Shown in pieces: positions 82 through 9,218 of a DNA stretch of 9,233 nucleotides. Under the pieces are notes generated by a model, which ran no database searches, was not told the origin of the DNA, and saw only the letters and a list, made by a program, of their open reading frames with translations. The stretch spans positions 1-9,233 of IMG/VR virus record IMGVR_UViG_2630968558_000007; one strand, written 5' to 3'. Source of the stretch: a virus. Taxonomy: Duplodnaviria > Heunggongvirae > Uroviricota > Caudoviricetes. Position numbers and translations under genes: made by a program. Every line of letters starts with the position of its first letter. Positions within the stretch are counted from its first letter, which is position 1.

Positions 82-1923
82 ATGATGAAAGTAACTGCAA
101 ACGGTAAGACATTTACCTTTCCTGATGGTACGAGCACCGAAGATATTGGCACCGCCATTGATGAGTATTTTGCTGGTCAGGCTGTTCAGCAACAAACAGT
201 TAATCAGGCCAATAATGTACCAACACGGAAAGAACCATCATTGATGCAACAAGCTGGCGATTGGCTCACTGGTGGTCAAAGTGCAGGGCAAATTGCAGAA
301 CAGGCTGGTCGTGGTCTGGTAAACATACCATTTGACGTATTGCAGGGTGGCGCAAGTCTGATTAATGCAATCAGTCAGGGGCTTGGTGGGCCAAAAGTAT
401 TGGATGATGTCTATCGTCCAGTCGATCGACCGACAGACCCTTATGCGCAAGCTGGAGAAACAATTGGCGGGTATTTAGTTCCAGGAGTTGGAACGGCAGG
501 AAGCATGGCTATTGGATCACTGGCAGAGGCCGCAAATCAGAAAGGCGATTTCGCACAAAATGCAGCCAAAAATGCCGGAGTTAACCTTGCCGCTCAGGGG
601 GTTCTTTCCGCAGCAGCAAAGGGAATAGGGCGTGGAATAACGGCTATAAAAGGTGATATTTCGCCAGAAGTGGCGAAGAAAATTGCCACATCAGAATCGA
701 TGGGCGTGACACCAATGACATCTGATGTTATCCCGCCGAAAAATGCTTTCACTCGCGGCCTTACTCAGGATGCCGAGGGGGCTTTGCTCGGGACAGGCTC
801 AAAGCGAGCGGAGCAATATGCAACGCGTAGTAAGCTGGTAAGTAATTATTTTGACCGTTTTGGTGAGTACAACCCTGATGATGTGGTGAAATCTCTGACC
901 ACCACGTTAAGGGGGCGGAAGGATGCCGCTGGCGCTGTTATCAATGACGTCACCAATAAAATGGGTAATGCCGCAGTTGATACCACAAACACTATGAATG
1001 CTCTGAATACAGCGATCGCAAGACAGGAACGGCTTGGGACGTCTGCCAATCAAAGCCTGCTTACATCCTTGCGTAACCTACGTGAAGAATTAGCAAACCC
1101 TGCAACTGATTTGGATGTTACGTTTGATCTCCTGCGTCAGCACAGAACAGCATTTAGATCTAATGTTCAGGGAGATGCTATGGTCTTCCCCAACCAGGCA
1201 AAAGCAGCTACCAATATGGTAGAGAATGCAATGTCAAAAGACCTTCGTAACGCAGTTGCAAAAAACCTCGGTGCATCAGACGCAGCAAAATACCTTAAAG
1301 CAAATTCTGATTATGCAAACGTTTATAATAAGGTGCTTAATAAAAACATTGCTAACAAACTCAACAAGGCAAGCAGTGAAGCCAGCCCTGAACTTATAAA
1401 TACCGTTGTATTAAGCAGAAAACCATCTGACGTGAAACGAATATGGAGCGCACTGGATGATAAAGGGAAAGATGCTATGCGTGCAGCTTACGTCAGCAAA
1501 ATAGCGGAAAAGGCCGGTGACTCTCCAGCCAAGTTCATCACTGAAGTTAATAAGCTGAAATCTCAGTCAGGCGGTGAAATTTACAACACTATTTTTTCTG
1601 GAAAGCACATGAAAGAGCTTGATGCTCTTCATGAAGTTCTACAGCAAACAGCAAGGTCAGACACCGCAAATGTAGTAACTCAGACGGGGCAATCACAAGC
1701 CAACAGGATAAGGACGATTGGCGCAACTGCGACTCTTGGTGTATCAATGGGGCTTGAGGCTGGCTTTGGTGCAATGATGCGTTTGTATGAGTCCAAAGCA
1801 GCAAGGAATGCTCTCTTACGTCTGGCAAACACTAAAGCTGGAACGCCAGCCTATGAAAGAGCGTTGAATACCGCTGCAAATGCCATCAGGCCGCTGCTTG
1901 CTACTGAGGCAACACAGCAGTAA
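82..1923 (+). CDS. P22 gp16-like DNA ejection (injection) protein
   Basis: 613-aa ORF; N-terminus [18 protein letters not shown] resembles my recollection of P22 gp16; size close to gp16 (about 609 aa); Ala/Gly/Gln-rich composition typical of ejection proteins; last late gene before the immI region as in P22. Start may be ATG 85 rather than 82 (GGTGG at 76-80). Confidence 0.6.
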
Positions 1924-1947: not shown

Positions 1948-2337
1948 TTAACATTTTCTTTTTACTTTTCCAACAAAGGCTTTGGTTGAATCCATATTCC
2001 CATAACCAGAAATGGTTTTCGACATTAAAACTGTTCCATTAGGATGTATTACCCATGAGTCGATAACTCGTTGAGTTTCGCCATTCGCGCCGATTCCGAT
2101 GATGGAGTTTTTAGACAATGCTTTGTAAGCCATGCCGCCCGCATCCGTCCCAGAATATGTGATACTGGCATCTTCACCGTTTGTCTTAATGATGAATGTT
2201 CCACTAAAACCATCTTCTTCCGGTTGAAAATTATTTCGTTCTGAATAGCTTATTCCGTGCATATCTCCAACGACCCAGCACTCTGCTGAGACAGAAAACG
2301 AGAAGACAAAGAAAGCCATTGCTATAATCAATTTCAT
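1948..2337 (-). CDS. hypothetical secreted protein (predicted Sec signal peptide), third gene of the mnt operon
   Basis: 129-aa ORF. N-terminus MKLIIAMAFFVFSFSVSA|EC has a hydrophobic core and an AXA-like cleavage site, with no lipobox. Mature protein has Cys near both ends (ECWVV…KVKRKC). Start lies 15 nt after the stop of the upstream ORF, same strand as mnt. Visibly AT-rich. Confidence 0.55.
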   Translation of the reverse strand: MKLIIAMAFFVFSFSVSAECWVVGDMHGISYSERNNFQPEEDGFSGTFIIKTNGEDASITYSGTDAGGMAYKALSKNSIIGIGANGETQRVIDSWVIHPNGTVLMSKTISGYGNMDSTKAFVGKVKRKC

Positions 2338-2352
2338 TTTAAGCCCTTATTG

Positions 2353-2688
2353 TTATTGATTCTTTTTGCACGGAAATGTTTTTCCTACTGCTAGGGCGGT
2401 TAGTATAACTGCATTCTCATTTCTTGATTCTGGGTTTTTGTTTAGATATTTCTCAACGATATCGGTGTATTGATACATGTCAACGCCATCAGGAGGACAT
2501 AGAGAACCAATTAGTATCAATGAGTCAGTTACTCCGCGCAAATATCCAGTAATGTAAAGCGATGAAAAATCATCACCATTTTTACCTTGTTGAATGTTGT
2601 AAAGAAGGTCATTACCCGTTTGAAGCTCGCGCAGCTCAGCACTGGAAGAAGAGACAACTGCTAACAGGAACAGTGATAGAAATCTCAT
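2353..2688 (-). CDS. hypothetical secreted protein (predicted Sec signal peptide), translationally coupled to mnt
   Basis: 111-aa ORF. N-terminus MRFLSLFLLAVVSSSSA|EL is a signal peptide. Two Cys in the mature part (SLCPPDG, FPCKK). Its ATG overlaps the mnt stop in an ATGA arrangement (plus-strand tcat at 2685-2688). Confidence 0.55.
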   Translation of the reverse strand: MRFLSLFLLAVVSSSSAELRELQTGNDLLYNIQQGKNGDDFSSLYITGYLRGVTDSLILIGSLCPPDGVDMYQYTDIVEKYLNKNPESRNENAVILTALAVGKTFPCKKNQ

Positions 2689-2939
2689 TTCAAATCCTTT
2701 TCATAAATCTTTTTAAGTGTCTCAAACACTATAGCCTTGAACTGCTCGGCCTGCTGATCAGCCAAGCGTTCAGCTTCGTCGCGATATCCTGTAATCGGTG
2801 ATGGTTTTGATAGTGCATCCTGAACGATTTGTAATAACTCAGAGTTCATTGACCTTCCGTTAGCCTCGGCTCTTAATTTCAATTTTTCTCTTACTTCCAA
2901 AGGCATACGGAAGTTAAAGTGCGGATCATCTCTAGCCAT
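2685..2939 (-). CDS. mnt: Mnt repressor (ribbon-helix-helix maintenance repressor of immI)
   Basis: 84-aa product MARDDPHFNFRMPLEVREKLKLRAEANGRSMNSELLQIVQDALSKPSPITGY… is near-identical to P22 Mnt as I recall it. SD GGAGTGA upstream on the minus strand. Divergent from arc across the Pant/Pmnt region. Confidence 0.9.
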   Translation of the reverse strand: MARDDPHFNFRMPLEVREKLKLRAEANGRSMNSELLQIVQDALSKPSPITGYRDEAERLADQQAEQFKAIVFETLKKIYEKDLK

Positions 2940-2961
2940 GCCATCACTCCAAGTTAGTGTA

Positions 2962-2990
2962 TTGACATGATAGAAGCACTCTACTATATT
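2962..2990 (+). promoter_or_regulatory. Pant-like sigma70 promoter driving arc-ant (-35 TTGACA 2962-2967, 17-bp spacer, -10 TATATT 2985-2990)
   Basis: Consensus -35 and near-consensus -10 hexamers with a 17-bp spacer, directly upstream of arc. The Arc operator lies between the hexamers, as in P22 Pant. Confidence 0.7.
2967..2987. promoter_or_regulatory. Arc operator (ATGATAGAAGCACTCTACTAT)
   Basis: 21-bp sequence with TAGA/TCTA half-sites, matching the P22 arc operator from memory; sits in the Pant spacer. Confidence 0.8.
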
Positions 2991-2995
2991 CTCAA
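2967..2995 (-). promoter_or_regulatory. Pmnt-like promoter on the minus strand (-35 TTGAGA from 2995-2990, 17-bp spacer, -10 TATCAT from 2972-2967)
   Basis: Hexamers read on the minus strand with a 17-bp spacer, upstream of the mnt start; overlaps the Arc operator and abuts the Mnt operator. Hexamer assignment is by inspection only. Confidence 0.45.
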
Positions 2996-3015
2996 TAGGT
3001 CCACCGTGGACCTAT
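2995..3015. promoter_or_regulatory. Mnt operator (perfect palindrome ATAGGTCCACCGTGGACCTAT; 17-bp core 2997-3013)
   Basis: Perfect 21-bp inverted repeat. The 17-bp core is the reverse complement of the P22 Omnt sequence AGGTCCACGGTGGACCT as I recall it. It overlaps the predicted Pant start site. Confidence 0.8.
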
Positions 3016-3029
3016 ATTGTGAGGTGAAC

Positions 3030-3191
3030 ATGAAAGGAATGAGCAAAATGCCGCAGTTCAATTTGCGGTGGCCTAAAGAAGTATTGGATTTGGTACGCAA
3101 GGTGGCGGAAGAGAATGGTCGGTCTGTTAATTCTGAGATTTATCAGCGAGTAATGGAAAGCTTTAAGAAGGAAGGGCGCATTGGTGCGTAA
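3030..3191 (+). CDS. arc: Arc repressor (ribbon-helix-helix)
   Basis: Internal ATG at 3030 gives the 53-aa product [53 protein letters not shown], essentially P22 Arc. SD GAGGTG at 3021-3026. The 74-aa track ORF from 2967 runs back across the promoter and operators and is an over-extension. Confidence 0.9.
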
Positions 3192-3259
3192 AGTTGAAGC
3201 CCCAACTGCTGGAACAGTCAGGGCTTCGGTATCAACAAAACTTACGAGGTATTATTGAT

Positions 3260-4150
3260 ATGTCAAGCTTAGCAAAGTCAACTGTAAATTGCACTAATAG
3301 CATCATCATTTCTGACGTCAAGATTCATATGGATTCAGAGGGGCGTTACTCGCTTAATGACCTTCATGTAGCGTCTGGGAAGGAGGAAAAACATCAGCCA
3401 GCTTTCTTCATGCGTAGAAATGAAACTATTGAATTGATTAATGAAATTTTTAATTCTGCGGATATGCAGAATAAGAATCCCGTCCTTTCTAAGAAAGGTC
3501 GATATGGTGGAACCTACGTGTGCAAGGAGCTTGTTTACTCCTACGCCATGTGGATTAGTGCATCCTTTGCGCTGAAGGTTATCCGTGCATATGACGCAAT
3601 GGTTACTGCCACACAAGATAGGAAGGCTATTGGAGGTAAAACTTCAGTAGCTGAACGCACACCGCTACGAGATGCAGTAAACATGCTGGTAGGAAAGAAA
3701 GGACTTCGCTATGACGATGCATACAATATGGTTCATCAGCGTTTTGGTATTGACAGCATTGATGAACTTTCAATTGAACAAATCCCGCAAGCTGTAGAGT
3801 ACATCCACAGGGTGGTGCTTGAAGGTGAGTTCATCGGCAAACAAGAGAGGAAAGTCAACGAGCTTTCTGCAAAAGAAGCAAACAGCCTTGTATGGTTATG
3901 GGATTATGCCAACCGCTCACAGGCATTATTCCGCAAACTGTATCCGGCGCTGAAACAAATTCAATCGAACTATTCCGGCAGATGCTACGACTATGGTCAT
4001 GAGTTCTCGTATGTTATCGGAATGGCAAGAGACGTTTTAATAAACCACACACGAGATGTTGATATCAATGAGCCAGACGGACCAACGAATCTTTCCGCAT
4101 GGATGAGACTTAAGAATAAAGAATTACCTCCTTCAGTACATAACTACTGA
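3260..4150 (+). CDS. ant: antirepressor-like protein with N-terminal KilA-N domain (Ant position of immI)
   Basis: Position after arc as in P22. KilA-N-type motifs [13 protein letters not shown] and [25 protein letters not shown]. Preferred start is ATG 3260 (SD GAGGT at 3246-3250), giving 297 aa; the track ORF begins at TTG 3194, 2 nt after the arc stop and with no SD. Confidence 0.65.
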
Positions 4151-4169
4151 CAGATAACCAACGCAACGA

Positions 4170-4192
4170 CCCAGCTTCGGCTGGGTTTTTTT
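4170..4192 (+). terminator. Rho-independent terminator after ant (stem CCCAGC / GCTGGG, loop TTCG, then a 7-T run)
   Basis: Perfect 6-bp GC-rich stem at 4170-4175 and 4180-4185 with a 4-nt loop, followed directly by T7 at 4186-4192, about 20 nt after the ant stop. Confidence 0.7.
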
Positions 4193-4250: not shown

Positions 4251-6173
4251 ATGACAGACATTACAGCCAATGTGATTGTATCGATGCCTTCGCAACTCTT
4301 CACTATGGCACGTTCTTTTAAAGCCGTAGCCAATGGCAAAATTTATATAGGAAAAATTGACACTGACCCGGTAAATCCTGAAAACCAGATTCAGGTTTAT
4401 GTGGAGAATGAGGATGGTTCTCACGTTCCTGTTTCACAACCAATCATCATTAACGCTGCTGGATATCCGGTATATAACGGACAGATTGCCAAGTTCGTAA
4501 CTGTGCAAGGCCACTCTATGGCTGTTTATGATGCATATGGTGCGCAGCAGTTCTATTTTCCTAATGTGCTGAAGTACGACCCGGATCAGTTAAGGCAGCA
4601 GATTGAAGACCCTGATGGGGCAACCAAATATCCCGCATTGCAGATTTCTCGCTGGCGTGATGATTTAGACGTGCGTGGATGGGGAGTATTCCCGGATGGT
4701 ACAGATGTTACTGCTAAACTGTGTGAGGCATTGGATTATGCTAACGGTGATTATTCACAATTAGTTGAGTATGGGAAAAACAGAAAATCATTGCATATCC
4801 CTCCAGGCGATTATGTCGTTGATATGACCAAGCTGACTGGCATTCATGCTTCTGCTGGTCGCTTTGTGATCCGCTGTAACGTTGATTGTGTTGGCCGAAT
4901 CCCTAACGGGGATTTCCTAATCCTTCATAGTAAATCTATAAATGTAACTGGCCTTTCATGTAAATCGTTATACATTAGAGGGCTACAGTTTTCTATTATC
5001 TCGAACATTGATACGACCGGCGATATAAGATTTTTTTCATCAGACGCATACACTCTGCCTGGGTTGGTTGTATGGGGTGGCGGGAGTTATTGGAATCATT
5101 TTGTACGCATCAAAACAGGTACTGCGGCAGGTGGTGGCAGATTCATAATTGACATCTCTGATGGATCTATAAATCAAAATACATTTGAGCAGCTTTGCGG
5201 TGGTGGTCTGATCATAACTGGATCAGGTTTTAGTCGCCAGACCGGTGCTCCGTATGAGGGGAACGCAAACACATTTATAGGTCTTGACACATCGGGAAGC
5301 GGCGATTATTTGCTCTATAACAATAGCACCCCAAATCAGCATAATGTTGTGATAGGTTTGTATGGCGAGGTTACGGGCAATGGGAAAATACGTGGGCCGT
5401 GGACCATACTTGGCGCGCGTGCGCAATTTGGGGGCTGGGCCTCAACCATGAGCCCCATGAATACCATATTAGGGACAGACCCTACAGCAGGCTCACAGGG
5501 AGGAGAGACGTTCAGTGTCTCCGGTTCTAATCTTTGCCCTTCTGGAGATTGGTCGGTTATTGAAGGAGTCTACGGAGCACCGATTGACTTTTCCCTTTTA
5601 ACTATACCGAACGAACGAAAGGTTGGTTCTGACCCTAATGAACCATCTGGCTGCGGTAGATGGTTTGGAGTCACTAACGCATCTCAACGTTGCAGAATAA
5701 CCCTAAATTTAACTAAAACACAGTCAGGTTTCATTCGTGGAGCTTTTTACTTTAAAGGCGACACACCGCTTGAGATAGCTATAGAAGCTCAAGATGGTAC
5801 TAATACCATCTATATGCCAGTTAATATGTTCTACGATATGGGTGTTGGAGGGTGGAAGTTATACAAAGTTTCAGCGCCAACCAACGACAAAAGTAAAGCA
5901 TACAGATTAAGGATTACAGTTGAATCCGGAATGAGCGCTTATGTTGGAGGAGCGTATTTTAGCCAGTATAACGGAACCTTTCTTCCAGTATTCTGCGGAT
6001 GGGAGAAAGTAAAAATGAGATCTAGCGTAAAGCCTACTGTGACAGAGAACACAGGTTCTTTCCCAATCGGCTTGGTGTCCTACAGAACATCTCCAGCAAC
6101 ATATCCTTCCGACCCTACTGTCCAATGGGTGTGGAATGGAAGTACATGGGGGATTGTGAATATTTCTGCCTAA
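4251..6173 (+). CDS. tailspike protein (P22 gp9 / Sf6-type head-binding domain fused to a divergent receptor-binding domain)
   Basis: First ~113 aa ([50 protein letters not shown]…NVLKYDPDQ) are near-identical to the Sf6/HK620/P22 tailspike head-binding domain as recalled. The remaining ~525 aa are Gly/Ser/Thr/Asn-rich and consistent with a beta-helix receptor-binding domain. SD GGAG at 4239-4242. Confidence 0.9.
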
Positions 6174-6209: not shown

Positions 6210-7307
6210 TTATCTTGGAATATTTTTCTCGATATATTTATAGCTTAGTAGTGCAAAAGCTACAGATGTTATAAATACAATAAAAATAAACGAGAAGCTT
6301 TTTGATAAATCAGCCATCCCAAGCCAATCTATCATCTTAAAGCATAATATAAACGTAATTGGATGAACTAAATACAAAGAGTATGAAGCATCACCAATCA
6401 TGATGAAAATACGTGGTATTTTGATGTTGTCTTGTATGTAGTCAGAGCATGCAGTAAAGCATGCAAACATTATGCAAAAATATTTCCCTGAATGAAAAAT
6501 CCCATGCCCAGCATCAAACTGTGTTATGTAAGCCCATACAGGGATTATGATTCCAATCGAAATTAATGGTATTGCAATCCTTTTGTCTCTAATTGAAAAG
6601 TTACCACTTTTGTATAGGATAGCAATAATCGCACCGAAGACAAACTCCCAAATCAGGCTTTGCATGGTTAAATTTATATATCCTAAACCTTCAATTTTTG
6701 GTCTGTCGAATACACCCGCAATAGATGGCAAAGCTAACAGTGTAATGAAAAACCATAATATATAAAATGTATACCTAAACTTCCCCAGCGCTATTCCAAT
6801 GGCGCAAACTAAATAAAAATATATTTCATAATTGAGGGTCCATCCAACGAACAATGATGGAGGCCCAAAGTATATAGGTGACTCAGTGTTTAGTGGAATG
6901 AAAAGCAAACCTTTGATTATGTTTGTTAATTCAAATGAGCTAGATGATTGGTTATATGAAAACCCATGCATTAAAGATAAATCAACATTTTTAACAATGA
7001 CTATATATGCAATAGTCATGATGAAATATAGAGGCCAAACTCTTAAGAAACGTTTTTTAATAAACTTTATCAAATCATTGCTTTGGTAGCTATGAGACGT
7101 ATAAATTATGATAAAACCACTAATGATGAAAAATAAATCAACTCCGAATGCACCAGGCCAAAATAATCGCTGAGCCAGCCATTCATATTCTGTTCCTTTC
7201 AAAAAATCCCTTGCATGGCAAAGTACGACAAGCATAGCTGCAATAGCCCTAAGCGCCTGTATATACTGAAGGTTATTCTTTCTTGGTGGACTGTTATCGA
7301 TTTCCAA
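6210..7307 (-). CDS. acyltransferase-3 family integral membrane protein (O-antigen acetyltransferase, Oac-like serotype-conversion candidate)
   Basis: 365-aa polytopic hydrophobic protein with acyltransferase-3 signatures: N-terminal LRAIAAMLVVLCH, FGVDLFFIISGF, C-terminal SYSLYLVHP. Sits between tailspike and integrase where Sf6 carries oac. Visibly AT-rich. Apparent TTG start at 7307 with AGGTG 4 nt upstream. Confidence 0.8.
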   Translation of the reverse strand: MEIDNSPPRKNNLQYIQALRAIAAMLVVLCHARDFLKGTEYEWLAQRLFWPGAFGVDLFFIISGFIIIYTSHSYQSNDLIKFIKKRFLRVWPLYFIMTIAYIVIVKNVDLSLMHGFSYNQSSSSFELTNIIKGLLFIPLNTESPIYFGPPSLFVGWTLNYEIYFYLVCAIGIALGKFRYTFYILWFFITLLALPSIAGVFDRPKIEGLGYINLTMQSLIWEFVFGAIIAILYKSGNFSIRDKRIAIPLISIGIIIPVWAYITQFDAGHGIFHSGKYFCIMFACFTACSDYIQDNIKIPRIFIMIGDASYSLYLVHPITFILCFKMIDWLGMADLSKSFSFIFIVFITSVAFALLSYKYIEKNIPR

Positions 7308-7442: not shown

Positions 7443-7829
7443 ATGGGATTCCCGAGTCCAGCACAAGACTACGTTGAAGAGCGCATATCGCTCGACAAGT
7501 GCATCATAAGCAGGCCAGCGGCAACGTACTTCATGCGAGCGGGTGCGACGCACTACCGGGAAGGTATCCTGAATGGCGCGCTGCTGGTTGTGGATGCTTC
7601 GCTATCACCATGCGACGGCTCATTACTTGTTTGCAGAATGGAAGGTGAGCTGAGGATTAAGCGATACCGCAAATCACCCAAGGTTCACCTGGAAGATTTG
7701 CAGACAGGAAGAAGGGAGGCTATACCTCTGCACGATGACGGAACGAGCCCTGATGCGATATTTGGCGTAATCACCTACATCATCAACGATGCGCGGACGG
7801 GTGAGTTTGATGATTGCCCGGTGATGTGA
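7443..7829 (+). CDS. UmuD'-like protein (S24 LexA/UmuD-family C-terminal domain, N-terminally pre-truncated, predicted non-catalytic)
   Basis: 128 aa. MGFPSPAQDYVEERISLD…ATYF… aligns with E. coli UmuD from Gly25 onward (UmuD: C|GFPSPAADYVEQRIDLN…SATYF). The UmuD GDSM catalytic-Ser motif is replaced by ATHY; the Lys-containing region is retained (ELRIKRY vs EFTVKKL). Strong SD, LexA box upstream, no umuC-like gene in the window. Confidence 0.8.
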   Translation: MGFPSPAQDYVEERISLDKCIISRPAATYFMRAGATHYREGILNGALLVVDASLSPCDGSLLVCRMEGELRIKRYRKSPKVHLEDLQTGRREAIPLHDDGTSPDAIFGVITYIINDARTGEFDDCPVM

Positions 7830-7899: not shown

Positions 7900-9057
7900 T
7901 TAGCCCACCTTTTCATCAAGCCAATCCGCCCACCACTGCATCATCTCCCTGCGCTTATCGAGATACTGAGCATGGTTGTAAATTCCACGCACAGATCCGC
8001 CATTGGCATGTGCCAGTTGCACTTCAATAGCATCAGCAGGCCATTCGTGCTCGTTCATAATCGTACTGAATTCATGCCTGAATCCGTGACCGCTTTCCAG
8101 ACCCTCATAGCCGATTTGTTTGATCACAAGTAATACCGCGTTCTCGCAGATTGGCTTCTTCTTATCATTACGCCCGGCAAAAACAAACTCTGATACTGGT
8201 TTGGTGATGGAGCTTAACGTAGTGAGAAGTTCAACCACTTGGTCCGACATCGGGACCACATGAATCTTGCGTCCCTTCATCACACTGGCGTCGATAGTGA
8301 TAATCCTGTTTTCAAAATCGACGTTCTTCCATAGCATAGAACGAAGCTCTTTCGTTCTTAGGGCTGTGTAGCGTAAAACTTTGGTCGCAATGAGCGATAC
8401 GATACTTCCTGAAAATGTTGCCAGTGCTTTGTTGAATGTCGGGATCTGGTCTGCAGGAAGAAACGGGAAGTTCTTCTTGCGGTATCCCTTCATGGCGTCA
8501 GCAAGATCAGGTGCCGGGTTATATTTAGCCCTTCCGGTGACAATAGCGTAACGGAAAACCTCGCCGCATCTTCTGCGTGCTTTGTTGGCTCGTTCCATTG
8601 CACCGCGATCTTCAAACCTGCGGATTACTTCAAGAAGTTGCATCGGCTCAATATCCTGAATTTCAAGACCGCCGATGATGGGTAAAATGTCGTCATCAAA
8701 CATTTTGGCAAGTTCAGTCGTATACCCTACAGACCAGACTTGCTTCTTGTGCTCGTACCATTCCTTGTAAATGGCGCTAAAGGAATTGTTGTTAGACGAA
8801 GCCTTTTTCGCCTTTACCGGATCGATGCCAACCGAGATGTCTTTCCTCGCAGTCCATGCTTTATCCCTTGCCTCTTGCAAAGTCATAAGCGGATATTTTC
8901 CGACGGTCAGGATTTTCTCCTTACCGTCAATCTTGTAGCGAAGCTGCCATACCTTTTTCCCTGACACAGGGACATAAAGGTACAGGCCATTACCATCGAG
9001 AAGGCGGTATGGTTTTTCTTTCGGCTTTGCTGCTTCAATCTGCTTAACGGTGAGCAT
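7900..9057 (-). CDS. int: P4-type tyrosine integrase (IntS-like, tRNA-Arg-associated)
   Basis: Product from ATG 9057 is 385 aa, MLTVKQIEAAKPKEKPYRLLDGNGLYLYVPVSGKKVWQLRY… (P4-type N-terminal arm-binding domain), with C-terminal catalytic motifs HGFRHEF and RGIYNHAQY. The track ORF extends to GTG 9093, a less likely start. Adjacent to a tRNA-Arg 3' end, like E. coli K-12 intS next to argW. Confidence 0.9.
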   Translation of the reverse strand: MLTVKQIEAAKPKEKPYRLLDGNGLYLYVPVSGKKVWQLRYKIDGKEKILTVGKYPLMTLQEARDKAWTARKDISVGIDPVKAKKASSNNNSFSAIYKEWYEHKKQVWSVGYTTELAKMFDDDILPIIGGLEIQDIEPMQLLEVIRRFEDRGAMERANKARRRCGEVFRYAIVTGRAKYNPAPDLADAMKGYRKKNFPFLPADQIPTFNKALATFSGSIVSLIATKVLRYTALRTKELRSMLWKNVDFENRIITIDASVMKGRKIHVVPMSDQVVELLTTLSSITKPVSEFVFAGRNDKKKPICENAVLLVIKQIGYEGLESGHGFRHEFSTIMNEHEWPADAIEVQLAHANGGSVRGIYNHAQYLDKRREMMQWWADWLDEKVG

Positions 9058-9218
9058 GGGTAAAAATCCGGTGGGTAAAATTATTTTATCCACTTTTTAC
9101 CCGTCATGGAGTGCGGCTGTCAACGATCTGACGCGAACCATTACGAACTGTGAATCTACGGAAGGCTTGATATTCAGGGGATTTTGCGGACTGGTACGGA
9201 TGGGAGCGAACTGATAAA

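Follow-up and report, generated by a model that had tools for sequence, protein, structure and literature searches.

The window, by which we mean the whole 9,233-bp stretch of DNA analysed here, is a draft contig (JNBP01000177.1) that we read as the right end of a P22-like prophage. Longer contigs show the prophage extending to the left through P22-type genes for coat, tail and ejection proteins; its end is marked by an IntS-type integrase, and it adjoins a yfdC-like FNT transporter gene, mlaA and fadL. All open reading frames of the window are intact, and the gene order (gp16, cargo, mnt, arc, ant, tailspike) and the site, between gene 16 and the tailspike gene, are those of the P22 immI region (BK000583, 14.5–16.0 kb). 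The primary immunity region (immC) lies outside the window, more than 15 kb away. When complete E. coli genomes were searched with the whole window, none held more than 61% of it. The genes and RNA features assigned in the window are as follows:

82–1923, plus strand: gp16-type DNA-ejection protein (open reading frame listing and Pfam)
1948–2337, minus strand: orf129, secreted small beta-barrel protein, Sf6 gp38-like (no Pfam or NCBIfam match)
2353–2688, minus strand: Rap1a/Tai4-family immunity-like gene, 111 aa, with a signal peptide and predicted periplasmic location (Pfam PF18602)
2685–2939, minus strand: mnt, ribbon-helix-helix repressor, 84 aa (Pfam PF03869 and PF11423)
3030–3191, plus strand: arc, 53 aa (Pfam Arc, 9.8e-31)
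3192–3258, minus strand: sar antisense RNA, complementary to the ant ribosome-binding site (Rfam RF00262)
about 3196–3227, minus strand: sar terminator hairpin, part of sar
3260–4150, plus strand: ant, predicted chimeric antirepressor gene (Pfam KilA-N and P22_AR_C)
3266–3294, minus strand: candidate Psar promoter, with a TGcTAAGCT extended -10 at 3274–3266, positioned as the annotated P22 Psar
4168–4187, plus strand: intrinsic terminator after ant, an 8-pair stem followed by a T run
4251–6173, plus strand: tailspike with P22 head-binding domain (open reading frame listing and Pfam)
6210–7307, minus strand: acyltransferase-3 (open reading frame listing and Pfam)
7443–7829, plus strand: HumD-type protein, 128 aa (NCBIfam HumD equivalog)
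7900–9093, minus strand: integrase (open reading frame listing and Pfam)

The regulatory sites lie between mnt and arc, and the annotated P22 genome (BK000583), aligned to the window, served as the reference for all cis-acting elements. The Arc operator, ATGATAGAAGCACTCTACTAT, occurs once in the window, at 2967–2987 on the plus strand with 0 mismatches; 200 shuffles gave 0 chance matches. It is identical to the P22 sequence at 21 of 21 positions, aligns column for column to the annotated P22 Arc operator and sits inside the Pant spacer, which bears out a preliminary description of this DNA that had recognised it as the P22 site. The same description had also equated the Mnt operator with that of P22, and this holds for the half-sites but not for the full element. 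At 2995–3015 the window reads ATAGGTCCACCGTGGACCTAT against ATAGGTCCACGGTGGACCTGT in P22 (19 of 21 identical); both 8-bp half-sites, AGGTCCAC and GTGGACCT, are identical to P22, and the two mismatches fall at the symmetry centre (3005, G to C) and at 3014 (G to A), one base beyond the Mnt operator as annotated in P22. The window operator is a perfect 21-bp palindrome that covers the Pant -10/start region. At the centre, 48 of 82 related loci have G, 33 have C and 1 has T, and we take this base pair to be a non-contact position, with which the natural polymorphism at the centre agrees. At the equivalent of 3014 the A of the window is the majority state, the G of P22 being found in only 6 of the 82 loci. 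Compared with P22 for differences at contact positions, the operators are thus unchanged throughout the half-sites, for which part of PMC2777355 reports a 7-base energy matrix.

As first proposed, both operators are embedded in divergent promoters, and these overlap. Pant (2962–2990, plus strand; TTGACA-17-TATATT, 11 of 12 matches) and Pmnt (2995–2967, minus strand; TTGAGA-17-TATCAT) were each matched by the promoter scan, lie at the positions annotated in P22 and are identical to P22 in sequence. From 2901 to 3230 only a handful of positions differ from P22, every 25-bp block of 2910–3209 is 92–100% identical to it, and the mnt-arc intergenic sequence of the window recurs unchanged in 18 other IMG/VR contigs. 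The G to A difference at 3014 turns TGTATT of P22 into TATATT, the -10 of a second promoter-like site at 2989–3018 (plus strand; TTCTCA-18-TATATT, 9 of 12 matches) whose spacer contains the Mnt operator; this is a chance-level scan match and may mean nothing. The Pluralibacter gergoviae locus (L004) carries a 4-bp ACAT insertion, by estimate at about 4930–4945, between the Pant -35 and the Arc operator. This insertion would alter the spacing of the promoter, in a region whose operators are otherwise conserved.

The repressors that would read these sites are close to those of P22. Arc is identical to P22 Arc at 52 of 53 residues (98%), with the sole change, R16K, being the majority state among the related loci, and its beta-strand residues PQFNLRW are the same. 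Mnt matches the Pfam families Arc (PF03869, 3.7e-28) and Repressor_Mnt (PF11423, 1.3e-11) and is 81% identical to P22 Mnt overall. Within its N-domain 48 of 51 residues are identical, and residues 1–13, including the DNA-reading beta-strand, are invariant in the 82 loci. The differences from P22 are concentrated in the C-terminal third, a domain that varies together with the downstream cargo; at the DNA level, mnt is 56% identical to P22 at its 3′ end and increasingly similar toward its 5′ end, where identity reaches 100%. In one public record (L088) the arc gene call starts at 3006, inside the Mnt operator, and gives 61 aa; the P22-equivalent start is the ATG at 3030, which has GAGGTG upstream and gives 53 aa.

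The sar antisense RNA, absent from the preliminary description, was matched by Rfam RF00262 over its full length (66.3 bits against a gathering score of 43, E 2.3e-12). It is predicted to form two hairpins (-29.2 kcal/mol, z -6.7) in the shape that P22 sar also takes, and the terminator hairpin is almost unchanged from P22. Stem 1, the part antisense to the ant ribosome-binding site, differs from P22 in all six pairs with the pairing kept, and the ribosome-binding site itself is likewise of a different sequence. Four stem-1 variants occur among the related loci, all with one two-hairpin shape of about -29 to -30 kcal/mol. On the minus strand the terminator stem of the window pairs fully by way of G-U pairs, which on the plus strand become C-A mismatches; this asymmetry should stop sar yet let Pant transcripts reach ant. 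In Pluralibacter the stem pairs fully on both strands. P22 Psar is located in the first ant codons. At the equivalent place the KilA-N class of ant genes, to which the window belongs, has TGcTAAGCT as its -10, whereas every other Ant class has TGcTATACT at the same offset. The candidate -10 (TAAGCT) matches the consensus at 3 of 6 positions and was not called by the promoter scan, so that we infer Psar activity here with uncertainty. For annotation, the practical value of the locus is that sar, which carries no annotation in the E. coli records examined, is unannotated in most such prophages, and that gene callers place the arc start at 3006 rather than 3030.

Taken together, these features very probably make up a P22-type immI switch for secondary immunity, intact and flanked by ordinary mosaic sequence, in a P22-like prophage. 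The P22 immI mechanism is said to have its basis in the work of Susskind, Sauer and McClure. It should be transferable to the window, given identical cis elements and almost identical repressors; its steps are established for P22, as reviewed in parts of PMC2629481 and PMC8022706. On infection, Pant would transcribe arc and ant, and Arc, bound to its 21-bp operator, which separates the -35 from the -10 of Pant and also falls within Pmnt, would shut both promoters. In the lysogen, Mnt made from Pmnt would bind its palindrome and keep ant off, and sar, convergent and antisense, would pair with the ant ribosome-binding site as an added translational block. If Mnt were lost, Ant would be made and the primary (C2-type) repressor inactivated. 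The mnt transcript probably runs on into the Rap1a/Tai4-like and beta-barrel genes, both for exported proteins, and these would be lysogen-expressed conversion cargo in the position of P22 orf59a/sieA. From the sequence we infer repressor binding, promoter activity (that of Psar included), Ant function and co-transcription of the cargo; of these steps, the role of the KilA-N chimera and Pmnt-driven cargo expression are the least secure.

The protein encoded behind Pant had been described as KilA-N-type rather than P22 Ant, which is accurate for its N-terminal part alone. Residues 19–114 match KilA-N (PF04383, 3.3e-19, 69.2 bits against a cut-off of 23.8) and residues 197–268 match P22_AR_C (PF10548, 1.5e-28), the domain that in P22 Ant follows P22_AR_N (PF10547, 4.6e-44). 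When the whole protein was compared with P22 Ant, only residues 127–296 aligned, to P22 residues 131–300 with 84% identity over 170 aa. The N-terminal 126 residues gave no significant alignment to P22 Ant, Pfam found KilA-N in place of P22_AR_N, and NCBIfam returned no match for the protein. We therefore read the window Ant as a chimera, a KilA-N N-domain on the middle and C-terminal body of P22 Ant. The idea that the payload had been swapped fails at this point, as only the N-domain is exchanged and the C-terminal 57% is P22 Ant. As in the window, the P22 annotation has a terminator after ant, at the place equivalent to 4168–4187.

An open reading frame occupies the ant position in 74 related loci. 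All 74 start at the same offset from arc and end in the same P22_AR_C-type C-terminal body; 47 of them have P22_AR_N as the N-domain, 25 have Bro-N, and two, the window and L007, have KilA-N; the middle segment comes in two alternatives. With three N-domain types on one C-terminal body, the window Ant is one more combination in the Bro-N/KilA-N network: part of PMC10111431, citing Iyer et al. 2002, names P22_AR_N, P22_AR_C, KilA-N and Bro-N together as domains exchanged between phage regulators. Of 5426 complete E. coli genomes, 23 or more carry the KilA-N part of ant at a coverage of at least 80%. Over all 296 aa, the protein is 97% identical to the Ant of Salmonella phage vB_SemP_Emek (AFM54341), with a dN/dS of 0.115; for ant, mnt and arc alike, dN/dS is about 0.1.

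That the KilA-N chimera would act as an antirepressor is an assumption on our part. P22 Ant is broad in its targets, and KilA-N is generally regarded as a DNA-binding domain. The latter would suit a different reading of the locus, which we judge unlikely, as a decaying immI remnant in which the KilA-N::P22_AR_C protein is no working antirepressor (or serves instead as a kil-type protein or a regulator that binds DNA) and nothing but mnt and its cargo still matters. The full-length ant gene speaks against decay, as does its near-identity under a low dN/dS between a plaque-forming Salmonella phage and an E. coli-type prophage, even though the Emek annotators marked this Ant type '(Defective?)'. 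A Psar -10 that has decayed in comparison with every other class (TAAGCT against TATACT) would favour the remnant reading; intact arc and sar, together with two intact operators and two intact promoters, count against it. Also in its favour, one Serratia prophage (L089) keeps mnt and a Rap1a gene without arc and ant, and Villafane et al. 2008 (PMC2629481), in the part of that paper concerned, report degraded ant and arc genes in several relatives. The presence of this Ant allele in at least 23 complete E. coli genomes is a further point against decay.

The wider comparison used 82 loci, namely the window, P22 and 80 IMG/VR contigs. Since near-identity to Arc was the basis for collecting them, the constancy of their core is in part circular, and operator invariance in the 82 loci was for this reason rejected as a sign of constraint. 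An Arc search of genome contigs returned only two loci, the Pluralibacter locus and an unrelated RHH gene of Martelella. When the window was mapped onto the related loci (82–83 loci), its parts were present in the following shares:

gp16 gene: about 80%
orf129: 40%
Rap1a-like gene: 16%
core, 2700–3230: 99–100%
KilA-N part of ant: 2%
C-terminal part of ant: 78–96%
head-binding part of the tailspike: about 93%
receptor-binding part of the tailspike: 2%

The conserved block of about 530 bp (about 2700–3230) takes in the Mnt DNA-binding domain, the promoters and operators, arc and the sar terminator. Its left end falls at 2675–2725, the 3′ end of mnt, in 68 of the 82 loci; its right end falls at 3225–3250, just past the sar terminator, in 52 loci and at 3275–3300 in 29. 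Among the 5426 complete E. coli genomes, 173 hold at least 80% of 2901–3230. The slot that truly varies is the one downstream of mnt, for which 10 or more alternative gene sets occur. Conservation at the level of the operators amid mosaic flanks, as initially proposed, captured the conserved core and its variable surroundings and understated the extent of the block, which includes the repressor genes. The conserved unit consists of the repressor DNA-binding domains together with their sites, as expected of a co-adapted specificity unit, and the KilA-N Ant and the cargo after mnt would both result from ordinary mosaic recombination outside this repressor/operator block.

The constant core, the variable flanks, the many gene sets after mnt and a downstream protein whose N-terminal domain is unlike that of P22 would suit the initial reading as a portable, lysogeny-controlled expression cassette, re-used for a different, non-Ant payload; we regard this reading as very improbable, because the P22_AR_C-type C terminus at a fixed offset from arc in 74 of 74 loci means that the Pant-side payload is always an Ant, because the block extends beyond the cis sites to the repressor genes, and because the same Ant allele stands behind a different repressor/operator set in Emek. 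In the 82 loci, no control core was seen to drive a protein without an Ant-family domain from Pant.

Emek (JQ806763) shares with the window the genomic position of ant, its 5′ leader and the sar terminator, and orf129 is also present. Its immunity differs. Emek Mnt is only 29% identical, with His6 changed to Gln in the beta-strand, and the palindrome at the Mnt-operator position is ATAGTAGTACGGTACTAT, where the window has a P22-type operator. The Arc-operator equivalent is altered as well, and a different cargo follows mnt. Emek further has an extra gene, orf73 (4752–4973 of locus L003), between arc and the sar terminator, overlapping the arc stop and absent from both P22 and the window. The ant allele and the repressor/operator unit thus reassort independently, and the exchange goes both ways, contrary to what a cassette with a portable control core would imply.

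This biology is already known, through the 'ant moron' and the Bro-N/KilA-N network, and the Ant allele itself is present in the published phage Emek. In the part of Villafane et al. 2008 (PMC2629481) devoted to the 'ant moron', the interval between gene 16 and the tailspike gene is described as a highly variable insert, of ten types in sixteen genomes, that often contains mnt, arc, ant and sar (immI) together with genes of other function; that part of the paper does not name the combination of a KilA-N Ant with a Rap1a-like gene and orf129. Phage L, for instance, has neither arc nor ant. The window confirms that a textbook switch passes on as a repressor-plus-operator unit amid recombination of everything around it, a pattern documented in P22-like phages from 2008 onward.

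In the window the slot behind mnt is filled by the Rap1a-like gene and orf129; P22 has orf59a there, together with a terminator and a sieA gene driven by a promoter of its own. The mnt stop codon and the start codon of the following frame overlap (ATGA at 2685–2688, with an AAGGA Shine-Dalgarno sequence upstream), orf129 starts 15 nt after the end of the Rap1a-like frame, and no terminator-like site was predicted on the cargo strand between mnt and the cargo genes. This layout agrees with the earlier suggestion that mnt drives extra downstream genes.

The Rap1a-like protein scores 55 bits against PF18602 (cut-off 27.7) and has a signal-peptide-like N-terminus. Its AF2 (AlphaFold) model is all alpha, with a pLDDT of only 73.5, and in a Foldseek search of the PDB the top six matches were Tai4 or Rap1a (probability 0.87–0.99, TM 0.45–0.60). 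A PDB sequence search gave only marginal Tai4 matches (E about 0.09), and NCBIfam gave no match. The protein resembles the solved Rap1a of S. marcescens (3ZFI/4BI8) and Tai4 of A. tumefaciens (6IJE/6IJF) in passing the family threshold and in all-alpha fold, signal peptide and size; it differs from them in being only 21–27% identical and in its place directly after mnt in a prophage. It is an orphan: no Tae4/Ssp1 effector or T6SS gene lies near it in the window, where its neighbours are mnt, orf129 and gp16, nor near its relatives in the Serratia loci, where the neighbours are prophage genes.

These Serratia proteins are the closest relatives outside E. coli, at 74–78% identity, with a non-synonymous divergence of 0.16–0.19 and saturated synonymous sites. 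Their genes (L089, 6001–6336; L090, 6001–6715) lie directly after mnt in P22-like prophages, in one case with a second Rap1a-family gene next to the first and in the L089 case without arc and ant. Such recurrence of the mnt-Rap1a linkage in Escherichia-type and Serratia prophages, once in tandem and once without the Pant-side genes, would point to a selected lysogenic-conversion function rather than a passenger. It is conceivable, and we offer it tentatively, that P22-like prophages express orphan Rap1a/Tai4 proteins from the mnt transcript and thereby shield their lysogens from type VI amidase effectors (Tae4/Ssp1). If functional, the gene would add a defence in interbacterial competition to the traits of P22-like prophages. 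A literature search of limited extent found no description of the mnt-Rap1a linkage, which we regard as the only, mildly new lead of the locus.

The second cargo protein, orf129, was modelled by AF2 with confidence as a small all-beta barrel (pLDDT 85.8) with only generic matches to calycin, FABP, lipocalin and NHBA-C structures. It has a signal peptide, and cysteines lie near both ends of the mature protein.

Two further genes lie toward the right end of the prophage. The HumD-type protein (7443–7829, plus strand) scores 215 bits (cut-off 120) against the NCBIfam HumD equivalog, a UmuD'-like translesion polymerase subunit; its gene stands alone between the acyltransferase and integrase genes, with no umuC-like partner within the window. 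The acyltransferase-3 gene (6210–7307, minus strand), downstream of the tailspike gene, probably encodes an O-antigen acetylase, as does oac of Sf6.
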